Below, in pieces: positions 49,527 to 51,860 of a DNA stretch of 64,000 nucleotides. Position numbers and translations under genes: made by a program. The stretch lies in contig OY782391.1 in the NCBI GenBank assembly GCA_963677745.1, positions 864,001-928,000 on the forward strand, in the 5' to 3' direction. This DNA is from Candidatus Altimarinota bacterium. Lineage in GTDB: Bacteria; Patescibacteriota; Gracilibacteria; UBA1369. Within the stretch, counting starts at the first letter, position 1. Each line of letters starts with the position of its first letter. The notes beneath the pieces were generated by a model, which was not told the origin of the DNA, did not search any database, and saw nothing but the letters and a program-made list of their open reading frames with translations.

Positions 49527-49574
49527 AAGCCCGCATGGAACCCCGCTTCGGCGGGGCCCCCAGCGGGCTTTTTT
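49527..49574 (+). terminator. Intrinsic terminator of the S-layer gene
   Basis: AAGCCCGC...CCCCGC-TTCG-GCGGGG...GCGGGCTT plus T-run. Confidence 0.85.
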
Positions 49575-49589
49575 GTGCCTGTTTAACTA

Positions 49590-49618
49590 TTGACAAATAT
49601 ATGAAAATATTGTATCAA
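49590..49618 (+). promoter_or_regulatory. Promoter TTGACA-N17-TATCAA of lipoprotein gene 1
   Basis: Same relative position as the promoter in unit 2. Confidence 0.6.
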
Positions 49619-49697
49619 ATAGATGTCAAGTTGACCTTCGACATTTAGCTCCCGATTCCGAGGAGGGAAGAAGGGAGGAAAGGGAAAGGAAAAAAAC

Positions 49698-50609
49698 ATG
49701 AAGCGCTACGGATTTGGACTGTTTGTGGTGGCTGGCATGCTGATGCTGTCGGCGCTGCTGGGGCAGGCCTGTGTGTTGGATACATACGGGACACTGTTCG
49801 CTGACGGCGGCGCGGATGCCGGTCCGGACTGCAACGCTCTCTGCGAGGAAGCGGCTGCAGGAAGCTCCGGAAATGCCGGAACTGCCGGTCAGGGCACGCC
49901 CGATGTGGATGTGCCTGACACCTGCGACTGCGGAGATGCCGGAAGCGGTGGATCTGCCGGAGCAGGAGGTACTGGTGGAAGCGCCGGAACGGGCGGAGCC
50001 ACCGGCGGCACCGGAGGCTCGGCCGGACAAGGCGGAGCAACCGGAGGTACTGGCGGATCTGCCGGAAGCGGCGGAGAAGCTGGACAAGGAGGAACTGGCG
50101 GAGCAGCCGGAGGCGGCGGTCAGGCCGGACAAGGCGGAGCCGGCGGTTCGGGGCCAACCTGCGTAGTGGCAGGAGACGACGGAACTATCAACAAGATCAC
50201 CGCCGAAGCCATCCGGGTCTATCTGCACTATGCAGACGATTCCGAGACGTTTCTGTCCTACAGCCCGGTCAACTTCAGCTTCGATACCAAGCCGCTGTCC
50301 GCTCAGGCTGTTGTCTTGGGCAGCAATGGGCTGAGCTTCGGACTGTGGCATGATTCCACGCCTACACCCACTGTGCTCTATACAATTGATGAGGCAACCT
50401 TGCCGGCCGCAGAATGCACCGGAGTCGACATCAGGAGCATCGAGTGCAGCCGGATCTTGGCGAAGAGTTTCAGGTGCCAGTTCCCGCCCTACAACGAGGT
50501 GGTCGGCTGTCCAGCCAACGTTGCGTTCACCGCGCAGCTGGCCAGTGACAGCTATGCCGATCCGTCTGGGGGATACCAGATGGTACTCGCTGACATTTAC
50601 TGCCCCTAA
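49698..50609 (+). CDS. Gly-rich predicted lipoprotein with Cys-containing C-terminal domain (paralog 1)
   Basis: Signal peptide ending LGQAC; GGSAG/GQGG repeats; VYLHYAD...FRC domain. Confidence 0.8.
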   Translation: MKRYGFGLFVVAGMLMLSALLGQACVLDTYGTLFADGGADAGPDCNALCEEAAAGSSGNAGTAGQGTPDVDVPDTCDCGDAGSGGSAGAGGTGGSAGTGGATGGTGGSAGQGGATGGTGGSAGSGGEAGQGGTGGAAGGGGQAGQGGAGGSGPTCVVAGDDGTINKITAEAIRVYLHYADDSETFLSYSPVNFSFDTKPLSAQAVVLGSNGLSFGLWHDSTPTPTVLYTIDEATLPAAECTGVDIRSIECSRILAKSFRCQFPPYNEVVGCPANVAFTAQLASDSYADPSGGYQMVLADIYCP

Positions 50610-50646
50610 ACCCCAACCCCTCACCCGACTCAGAAAGGGAGTCAAA

Positions 50647-50784
50647 GTCGAAGTTCAACAACAGCTCGCCGACGCTTGAGTTGCCAAACAACCGCAAGGT
50701 AGTAGCAACGCAGGCCCAGGCGGAAAAGCAAGCCCCGCGCTGATCGTCCATACAGGACTTGATCGCGCGGGGCTCTTCGACGTG
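50647..50784 (+). ncRNA. Structured 3' RNA element, copy 1
   Basis: Repeat of 51725-51860 with compensatory changes. Confidence 0.7.
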
Positions 50785-50800
50785 TTTTTTTACGCCCAGA

Positions 50801-50828
50801 TTGACAAAATTAGAAAAAAACGTATAAG
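50801..50828 (+). promoter_or_regulatory. Promoter TTGACA-N16-TATAAG of lipoprotein gene 2
   Basis: Near-consensus hexamers. Confidence 0.6.
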
Positions 50829-50905
50829 TATAAGAGTAACATTGATCTTCGACATACACGCTCCCATCCCTGAAAAGGGACAATGGAAGGGAAAGGAAAA
50901 TTCCG

Positions 50906-51652
50906 GTGAACAACAAGTACAATCATTTCGTCTGGTTTTTCTGCCTGTTAACAGGCTGTCAGAGTGACGATGCCGCACTGTTCGGCGAAGGAGGAGCTCC
51001 CGCCGGCGGAAACGGCGGCGCTGGAGGTGAAACGGGCATCGCCGGACAGGGCGGCACCGCAGGAACGGCTGGAGCCGGTGGAATTGCCGGTTCGGATGCC
51101 GGCGGCGCTGATGCAGGTGCCGGAGGAACTGCCGGTAGCGGTGGAATCGCCGGCAACGGAGGAAATGGAGGCGCCGGCGGCGCTCTGCCTCTGGTCTGCA
51201 CTCCTGGTGCGGCCGACAACCCTGCCTCATGGTCGATCAACGGCGGGACCAAAGCATCGGTCTATCTGCGCTACGCAGACGGCACCGAGGGCTACAGCAC
51301 CGCCAACCCCAGTAACATCAACTTCCCGCTGGATTTCCCGGGACAACTGGTGGGGTCCACGGCCGACGGCATGACTATCAACCTGATCTACAACTCAGGC
51401 TCGGCGCCCGGCAACGACTTCTACCAGGTGACGACGGACAACGTACCGGAATGCGCCGGAACGAACTTCTACAGCCAGGCCTGCGACCAGAAGGTGGCCC
51501 AGGACTTTCGCTGCCTCTACTTTCCTGCAGAGGAAGCGGATTGCGGCAACGTCAAGGCGGCCTTCCTCTCGCTGGGGAAGCAGAAGTCGTACTCGGCGGC
51601 CTTCGCCGGCAACCGGAAAGTGCTGGTATCCGTCCGCTGTTCCTCGCCCTGA
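50906..51652 (+). CDS. Gly-rich predicted lipoprotein with Cys-containing C-terminal domain (paralog 2)
   Basis: Lipobox LTGC; GG.AG repeats; VYLRYAD...FRC domain. Confidence 0.8.
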   Translation: MNNKYNHFVWFFCLLTGCQSDDAALFGEGGAPAGGNGGAGGETGIAGQGGTAGTAGAGGIAGSDAGGADAGAGGTAGSGGIAGNGGNGGAGGALPLVCTPGAADNPASWSINGGTKASVYLRYADGTEGYSTANPSNINFPLDFPGQLVGSTADGMTINLIYNSGSAPGNDFYQVTTDNVPECAGTNFYSQACDQKVAQDFRCLYFPAEEADCGNVKAAFLSLGKQKSYSAAFAGNRKVLVSVRCSSP

Positions 51653-51724
51653 ACCGGTCCTGCCGCAACAGCATATTTCCCGCCGTCCCATGTCTCCCAC
51701 CGAACCCCGATTCCATCGGGAGCA

Positions 51725-51860
51725 GTCGAAGATCAATGGCATCTCGCCCAGGCTTGAGTCACCAGACAACCGCAAGGTAGTAGTGACGCAGGCCAAAGCG
51801 GAAAAAAAGGCCCCGCGTGATCGTCCTTCCGGACTTGATCGCGCGGGGCTCTTCGACGTG
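51725..51860 (+). ncRNA. Structured 3' RNA element, copy 2
   Basis: Repeat of 50647-50784. Confidence 0.7.

Follow-up and report, generated by a model that had tools for sequence, protein, structure and literature searches.

In Staphylococcus aureus, the 3' untranslated region (UTR) of the icaR messenger RNA (mRNA) carries a C-rich motif that pairs with the Shine-Dalgarno (SD) sequence, blocks initiation and creates a substrate for RNase III (PMC3868564). The hbs mRNA of Bacillus subtilis forms a 14-bp helix between its 5' and 3' UTRs, which modulates the RNase Y cleavage that gives RNase J1 access (PMC5737220). In the aapA1 and hok mRNAs, a 5'-3' interaction stabilizes the full-length toxin mRNA and prevents its translation until processing of the 3' end takes place (PMC5416894). 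A 2025 preprint by Gill et al. reports that distant anti-SD-like sequences pair with the ribosome-binding site (RBS) and repress B. subtilis mRNAs (PMC12697547). Here, we describe a candidate panhandle mRNA architecture in two tandem lipoprotein genes of an uncultivated Candidatus Peribacteria bacterium, a member of the Candidate Phyla Radiation (CPR). The genes lie on the + strand of a 64,000-nucleotide (nt) stretch of the genome (contig OY782391.1, positions 864,001 to 928,000), referred to as the window, in which all coordinates are counted unless another source is named. In each of the two putative transcription units (units 1 and 2), the beginning of the leader is complementary to a segment behind the stop codon. 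This complementarity is very probably under selection and probably acts in RNA. With moderate confidence, we favor the reading that it forms a selected 5'-3' UTR panhandle of the mRNA, which would bury the 5' end and part of the ribosome-binding region.

The type of mechanism is already known; this case differs in helix length, loop size, the attached 3' element, covariation across genera and the CPR host. As in icaR, a 3' UTR segment of an ordinary coding mRNA is predicted to pair with its own 5' UTR and may reach the SD region, the partner is C-rich and anti-SD-like, and RNase III, which acts on the icaR duplex, is encoded in this genome. Unlike the short UCCCCUG that covers the SD of icaR, the helix predicted here is gapped, extends over 40-60 nt from the 5' end and is best conserved in its 5'-terminal part. 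The two have no sequence relation, and the present case belongs to a CPR host and is known from comparative evidence only. The likeness to hbs lies in the length of the core (13-16 bp here), in a set of nucleases with RNase J and RNase Y and without RNase E/G, and in a presumably highly expressed gene with a strong SD. However, the hbs mRNA is short and its helix overlaps an RNase Y site in a structured leader, whereas the helix predicted here is longer and runs toward the start codon. The anti-SD repression of B. subtilis also involves pyrimidine-rich, anti-SD-like tracts hundreds of nucleotides from the RBS; there they are depleted from genes, whereas here they are retained within a larger covarying helix.

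The hok and aapA1 mRNAs have a closure of the 5' and 3' ends and a sequestered SD of the kind proposed for these units, and share with them the possibility of alternative pairings (here with CTTCGAC, a possible decoy present in one genus, g1). In contrast, they are mRNAs of ~250-400 nt that encode peptides of 30-50 amino acids (aa) and are accompanied by antisense RNA, while a lipoprotein of 248-450 aa, or two genes, would be enclosed here, with no evident antitoxin RNA and no reason to expect toxicity. A type I toxin mRNA was rejected as a class for these units, as the enclosed open reading frames (ORFs) encode lipoproteins of 303 and 248 aa and there is no small toxin ORF. The likeness to hok and aapA that had been proposed from the letters of the window alone (hereafter, the sequence-only reading) is a fair one as mechanism and does not extend to family membership. 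A promoter and terminator scan noted no antisense promoter/terminator pair, and Rfam gave no match. A full-text literature search found no paper on bacterial mRNA panhandles, nor on UTRs or mRNA stability in CPR bacteria. In a term search of the main text of the Peribacteria genome paper, the words UTR, untranslated and inverted repeat are absent.

A repeat search placed the outer arms of unit 2 at 50840-50853 and 51725-51738, where they are 14 nt long, 100% complementary and 871 nt apart. Those of unit 1 (49630-49645 and 50644-50659) are 16 nt long, 88% complementary and 998 nt apart. Further blocks are nested inside. In unit 2, these are GCTCCC/GGGAGC, GGGACAATGG/CCATGTCTC and GGGAAA/TTTCCC, with their 5' strands at 50860-65, 50877-86 and 50889-94, and, at the start codon, CCGGT pairs with an ACCGG that follows the stop; in unit 1, they are GCTCCC/GGGAGT and TTCCGAG/CTCAGAA. 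The unit 1 5' UTR (49625-49697) has a purine-rich SD region, and its predicted pairing with the 3' UTR covers ~49625-49686 and ends 13 nt before the ATG; the proximal 3' UTR (50610-50664) opens with a C-rich, anti-SD-like stretch right after the stop. In unit 2, the 5' UTR spans 50835-50905 and the proximal 3' UTR, with its pyrimidine-rich blocks, 51653-51741. The strings and nested blocks that the sequence-only reading had quoted for both units were all found in place, and the covariation it had noted in the outer pair, G-C in unit 1 (49630-50659) and A-T in unit 2 (50841-51737), is correct. The noncoding parts of the two units are conserved above the genes: the 5' arms share 13 of 14 nt, the promoters are alike and two blocks of the 3' UTRs, of 94 and 30 nt, are 82% and 100% identical, compared with 30% identity over 164 aa for the products.

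Comparison with relatives carries the case for selection. In the 11 units with upstream sequence, motifs resembling GATCYTYGAAAT and AGCTCC usually stand at the start of the leader. The elements behind the gene keep a conserved order: first a C-rich stretch, next the 3' arm and YTYGCC-N-GCTTG, then a variable hairpin followed by CAGGC..GGCAG, and last a terminator hairpin. An anchored test compared the first 45 nt of each leader with the 45 nt upstream of TTGCC..GCTTG in nine units from seven sources, giving 81 duplex energies. Five units were omitted: G015a is without the TTGCC anchor, G015b is cut at its 3' end by the contig end, G015c is cut at its 5' end, G017 is divergent with an uncertain start codon and without the motif, and L023 is the same as the 3' part of L022. 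The cognate duplex was the best in five of the nine rows and second in four, and the best in eight of the nine columns and second in one; where it came second, the competitor was the generally sticky tail of unit 2. The cognate energies sum to -250.9, compared with -140.8 +/- 18.2 for permuted partners, and none of 20,000 partner permutations reached the cognate sum. In a set reduced to a single unit from each source (7 units), the identity permutation was the only one of 5040 to do so. The arms of unit 2, G004 and the metagenome unit SWBW have no shared sequence, yet each forms 10-14 contiguous bp with its own partner. The 5' arm begins ~9-12 nt after a TAxxxx hexamer, and the helix ~2-5 nt from the predicted 5' end, in seven of nine units. 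The selection signal is carried by the outer, 5'-terminal helix.

The enclosed loop would be a coding region of 0.75-1.4 kb or, in one case, two genes. This bicistronic unit, SWBW, has two lipoprotein genes separated by an 18-nt spacer without a terminator, and the leader of its first gene pairs behind the second (reached by 1/200 shuffles). The partner therefore tracks the end of the transcription unit and not the end of the first gene, provided that L021 and L020, which are pieces listed under a single record name, lie next to each other across a gap in the Gly-rich repeat.

Predicted folds of whole transcripts are consistent with the duplex energies. In partition-function folds of eight contiguous transcripts (929-1811 nt), the outer helix formed at p>0.5 in seven, with 9-30 nt paired. 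When leaders were swapped in silico, eight of ten chimeras were without such pairs, and the other two formed 6 and 15. RNAfold predicts, for units 1 and 2 as wholes, that the 5' UTR pairs with the proximal 3' UTR in both the minimum free energy (MFE) and the centroid structure. At p>0.5, 30 of the first 45 nt of unit 1 pair with the 3'-arm window, and 19 nt are paired in unit 2. The leader of unit 1 also has a computed duplex energy of -40.6 kcal/mol with the tail of unit 2, compared with -42.9 kcal/mol for its cognate tail, and in read-through transcripts it could pair with that tail. Several expectations of the sequence-only reading are borne out by these results: complementarity selected and not due to chance agrees with the permutations, the folds and the leader swaps; closure of each 5' UTR on its proximal 3' UTR agrees with the MFE and centroid structures; and across nine testable homologous units, which come from seven sources, the pairing persists although the arm sequences differ.

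Within the host genome, the pairing was compared with dinucleotide shuffles and with other genes. For the first 42 nt of the leader against a 400-nt tail, unit 1 was reached by 0/200 and unit 2 by 4/200 shuffles; for the RNAduplex energy of the full leader, the figures were 1/100 and 0/100. Of the 1003 crude ORFs of the genome, no other equals the 14-nt perfect complement that unit 2 has between its upstream and downstream flanks. The next-longest in this screen, at 13 nt (one ORF), 12 nt (one ORF) and 11 nt (four ORFs), are mostly AT-rich and of low complexity, and the remaining distribution of lengths looks like chance. Genome-wide RNAduplex energies of ORF flanks were not discriminating, with the units ranked 46th and 59-60th of 1003 and an antisense ORF called for gene 1.

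The promoter-like site of unit 1 (49591-49619) consists of TTGACA (49591-96), a 17-nt spacer and TATCAA (49614-19), with a predicted start at ~49624-49626. That of unit 2 (50801-50828) consists of TTGACA (50801-06), a 16-nt spacer and TATAAG (50823-28), with a predicted start at ~50835. The arrangement of TTGACA/G, a 16-17-nt spacer and a TAxxxx hexamer is found at the same place in 11/11 units with upstream sequence.

In the favored panhandle, each gene would be transcribed from its own strong sigma-70-like promoter, and the first ~45-60 nt of the mRNA would pair with the 3' UTR between the stop codon and the structured 3' element, leaving the coding region as the loop. The outer helix would bury the 5' end, while the inner part, purine-rich on one strand and C-rich on the other, would reach the SD region and, in several units, the start codon. 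The closed form may resist 5'-end-dependent RNase J as well as RNase Y and may be poorly accessible to initiating ribosomes. Ribosomes loading ahead of transcription of the 3' UTR, or terminating next to the inner helix, could keep the helix open, and the long duplex is a potential substrate of RNase III. Among nucleases, the genome codes for RNase III, RNase J and RNase Y, the last with one full and one weaker match; RNase E/G has no match in it at 97.9% completeness, and the decay machinery is Bacillus-type. The function would lie in post-transcriptional control, of both stability and translation, of an abundant surface lipoprotein. Within the readings that place the pairing in RNA, about half of the weight falls on stabilization with translational gating and the rest on pure repression. 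Three points are inferred from the sequence and its comparison: a single RNA containing both arms, formation of the helix in cells, and its role.

The case for RNA, and not DNA, is an argument from the form of the complementarity. The arms are interrupted by unequal loops (6x1, 5x4, 3x0), an internal spacing as expected of an RNA helix but not of two equivalent protein-binding sites. Gapped complementarity runs on to the start and stop codons, the predicted helix extends from near the predicted start to these codons, and from genus to genus the arm sequences vary freely. Structure of an RNA type is also present in this 3' UTR, in the form of a covarying hairpin and a helix with a U.G pair, which are described below.

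Several observations weigh against the panhandle or weaken the evidence for it. Among the sequencing runs listed as containing the sequence, none is an RNA run, so the start sites, the 3' ends and the co-linearity of the arms are inferred solely from promoter-like and terminator-like sequence. A consensus promoter scan listed neither promoter, because the -10 hexamers TATCAA and TATAAG fail its T6 rule, and both were read by eye; the promoters predicted in the sequence-only reading are therefore conserved across units but unlisted by the scan. The anchors of the cognate test were picked after seeing the sequences, and the units are few and related. In unanchored tests (full leader or first 42 nt against a 400-nt tail), G003, G015a and Ga02 were not significant, and G002a, G002b, G024 and SWBW were not significant in at least one of the two. 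These statistics are noisy, as purine-rich leaders pair with any C-rich stretch, and for this reason the anchored comparison of cognate and non-cognate pairs was used instead. G015a has the conserved 5' motif and no convincing 3' partner, and the outer helix of G002a is missing from its whole-transcript fold. A helix reaching from the promoter to the RBS region had been proposed at the outset. Its outer part covaries, but its inner part, in which the SD region faces the 45 nt that follow the stop, is only marginally cognate-specific (reached by 1071 of 20,000 permutations), and the inner helix of unit 1 leaves the SD nearest the ATG unpaired. The sense helices of the panhandles contain 4 G.U pairs compared with 3 A.C/C.A single mismatches (strict 1x1), which does not single out the sense strand, and the tolerance of G.U pairs to which the sequence-only reading had appealed carries no weight. 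The reverse complement of the panhandle folds as well or better (G.U 4 vs 26); this apparent antisense advantage is an effect of composition, and no inference about the strand was drawn from it.

In a second account in RNA, the pairing serves silencing only: the full-length mRNA would be inert, 3' processing or RNase III would activate or destroy it, and protection of the end would be incidental. The predicted pairing reaches the start codon or comes within 4 nt of it in unit 2, G002a, G002b and G024. Anti-SD-like CCTC/CTCC occurs in the proximal 3' UTR of seven of nine units, compared with 223 of 1003 ORF downstream regions genome-wide (22%), and RNase III is present. In genus g1, the CTTCGAC decoy may take the 3' arm from the 5' arm, which would resemble the two states of metastable toxin mRNAs. 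Precedents exist in icaR (PMC3868564) and in hok/aapA1 (PMC5416894). However, the strongly covarying part is the 5'-terminal helix and not the SD part, the ATG-proximal SD of unit 1 is free, and the near-consensus promoters and long SD tracts would suggest high expression. Silencing as the sole function is unlikely on this balance.

The arms could also act as inverted repeats in DNA. In such a switch, the gene or gene pair would invert relative to a fixed promoter, resulting in on/off phase variation of a surface lipoprotein. The arms sit as needed, between promoter and coding sequence and behind the coding sequence, and those of the bicistronic unit enclose both genes; all units, however, were found in the promoter-proximal orientation. 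The genes encode surface proteins, and from strain to strain their coding part changes within constant flanks. Contigs of four runs from two studies contain no strand-changing joint, a weak point as contigs drop rare forms. Covariation of the arms is also expected if recombination homogenizes inverted repeats, and the wobble statistics do not favor RNA. Unequal loops and arm sequences that are wholly different between genera are nonetheless hard to fit to one recombinase, and the gapped complementarity carries on as far as the start and stop codons. Serine recombinases are absent from the genome, and of its three tyrosine recombinases the nearest is 33 kb off, Xer-like and below the cut-offs for invertases and integron integrases. 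We consider an inversion switch distinctly unlikely.

A more speculative extension, which we hold to be quite improbable, is a closed-loop mRNA with self-coupled translation. In four of six close units, the stop codon lies 1-4 nt from the 3' strand of the helix and the start codon 0-13 nt from the 5' strand. With both codons beside the helix, a terminating ribosome would melt the inner helix and free its own RBS for re-initiation, while an untranslated message would snap shut, dormant and resistant to nucleases. The CTTCGAC that follows the terminator hairpin in genus g1 would then be a decoy that sets the balance between the open and closed forms. If true, a CPR bacterium, with its minimal translation apparatus, would here have a device for economizing on ribosomes.

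Descent without function is very improbable. The arms would in that case be an inherited relic, either of a long-past duplication that set an inverted leader behind the gene or of paired sites for a DNA-binding regulator. The 5' motif GATCYTYGAAAT and AGCTCC are conserved even in units without a detectable 3' partner (G015a, G015b), so part of the likeness of the arms reflects shared ancestry or another constraint. Neutral decay would nevertheless erase a complementarity of 15-30 nt between genera, whereas cognate pairs stay the best despite changed sequences, and the arms are still matched where the proteins are down to 30% identity. A regulator site need not change in concert on both sides, and gene conversion would be inefficient between arms of such length at a distance of 1 kb.

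Two classes of mobile DNA were rejected. An integron cassette is contradicted by a score of 130.5 bits in integron-integrase models with a cut-off of 265 bits, by the separate promoter of each unit and by synteny of the locus across genera; the arm cores GTCGAAG/CTTCGAC also do not fit the attC consensus, RYYYAAC...GTTRRRY. A miniature inverted-repeat transposable element or transposon terminal repeat does not fit arm motifs that occur in noncoding context at this locus only, genome-wide, nor the conserved neighbors (the SLH-gene terminator upstream and the ABC-2 permease downstream). That the arms might be mere DNA terminal repeats, an outcome the sequence-only reading had weighed, is contradicted by a locus that is syntenic and not multicopy.

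Returning to the favored panhandle, the proximal 3' UTR is followed by a distal element, yTGCC-N4-GCUUG-(variable hairpin)-CAGGC-N3-4-GGCAg, found in the window at 50665-50728 and 51743-51806 and in L002, L003, L009, L020, L022 and L017. In unit 1, it comprises CTCGCC-N-GCTTG (50665-78), a covarying hairpin with a conserved loop (50680-50709) and CAGGC..GGCGG; in unit 2, CTCGCC-N-GCTTG (51743-56), a hairpin (51758-51787) and CAGGC..GCGG. The framing GCTTG...CAGGC/CAAGC is present in 9/12 units. The GCUUG/CAGGC helix contains a U.G wobble, which is a C.A mismatch on the other strand, in 9/12 units, and a second helix in G015c has the U-A version. Across the four close units, four of the five stem pairs of the hairpin are compensatory at 100% pairing (0/500 shuffles), and the conserved loop holds a CC-GCAA-GG mini-stem. 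RNAalifold on an 8-row alignment of the element gave the terminator stem alone because the insert is variable. Rfam had no match for the units or the distal element, at the gathering threshold or at an expect value (E)<=1. In a search of 41 relatives, the element was matched in three, always behind a homologous gene. It could be a protein-binding or processing module.

A terminator-like hairpin follows at 50732-50773 in unit 1, with CTCTTCGAC at 50773-81 and a T run at 50785-91, and at 51810-51849 in unit 2, with CTCTTCGAC at 51849-57 and without a T run. In genus g1 only (units 1 and 2 and G002b), CTCTTCGACGT stands after the terminator hairpin (L002 ~1505-1515, - strand). The CTCTTCGAC tail is a direct copy of the 5'-arm core and a complement of the 3'-arm core, and the 30 nt ending in this copy are the block that is 100% identical between units 1 and 2. 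When the 3' UTR is folded alone, the tail CUUCGAC pairs with GUCGAAG of the 3' arm. The g1 tail is a possible competitor of the 5' arm and may serve as a decoy or switch. A third copy of the terminator hairpin, 90% identical over 47 nt, was seen outside the window behind an unrelated gene (G000:C1:969225-969271, - strand, locus L005); its layout is GCCCCGCGC-GATCGTCC-loop-GGAC-TT-GATCGCGCGGGGC, without the CTCTTCGAC tail. Separately, in unit G004 (L009 ~1963-2220) the leader-pairing part of the 3' UTR is set off from the stop codon by ~260 nt rich in C and poor in G, in which CCTCC occurs several times; this insert may be a decayed coding remnant or may provide extra anti-SD sites.

The host genome is a single contig of 1,335,835 bp with 47% G+C. 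Gene 1 (49698-50609, +) encodes a 303-aa lipoprotein and gene 2 (50906-51652, +), which has a GTG start and the lipobox LLTGC, a paralogous lipoprotein of 248 aa. Both products have a signal peptide with a lipobox Cys, a Gly-rich linker and a Cys-rich C-terminal domain of ~155 aa. Upstream of gene 1 lies a gene for a 1453-aa SLH-domain protein with its own terminator (49527-49570), and downstream of gene 2 are genes for an ABC-2 permease (exporter), an ABC ATPase and a large glycosyltransferase; the locus is a cell-envelope locus. The SLH-gene terminator was seen as a nested hairpin followed by a T run (49527-49576). Its sequence (CCGCATGG...CCAGCGG-T run) is kept upstream of the lipoprotein promoter in G002, G004, G024 and G015, so the whole junction is syntenic.

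The lipoproteins matched no model of Pfam or NCBIfam, a homologous-protein search returned the query alone, and the ESM Atlas gave no usable match. In the C-terminal domain of gene 1 (50145-50606), five Cys are invariant across 36 sequences. Its predicted structure (predicted local distance difference test 94.4, predicted template modeling (TM) score 0.89) is a beta-rich fold with a helical insert, for which Foldseek found no significant match in the PDB (best E 0.26, TM below 0.3). The family of this domain has 46 matches in 1.84 billion representative proteins and is thus small and lineage-specific. Of 205 genomes in the order, 8 have the gene by a match to its profile, seven of them in the same family, including this genome, with one weak match elsewhere; four metagenome loci matched as well. 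A class-wide profile search added only low-complexity, Gly-rich matches.

Strains differ within gene 1. Contigs of runs X3 and X4 join 50018 to 50600, inside the gene, and a contig of X2 carries another C-terminal coding sequence that rejoins the reference at 50600, 9 nt before the stop. Where other strains carry the alternative C-terminal allele, the 3' UTR is otherwise identical, and the 12 listed single-base differences in strain contigs all lie outside the promoter, the 5' UTR and the 3' UTRs. The coding part is thus polymorphic between strains while the UTRs are unchanged, which may reflect diversifying selection or recombination at conserved flanks.

We regard the observed complementarity as real and the proposed panhandle as unusually well supported for a purely computational case. 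Known 5'-3' UTR pairing in bacteria rests on a few single-gene experiments (icaR, hbs and the type I toxins), while the evidence here is comparative. If the reading is true, end-to-end closure of mRNA would be an evolutionarily maintained design outside Firmicutes and Proteobacteria. The units would provide a natural, portable UTR pair for testing, in organisms with RNase J and RNase Y, how burial of the 5' end and occlusion of the RBS affect mRNA lifetime. For Peribacteria, the panhandle would be the first post-transcriptional control element of surface proteins.

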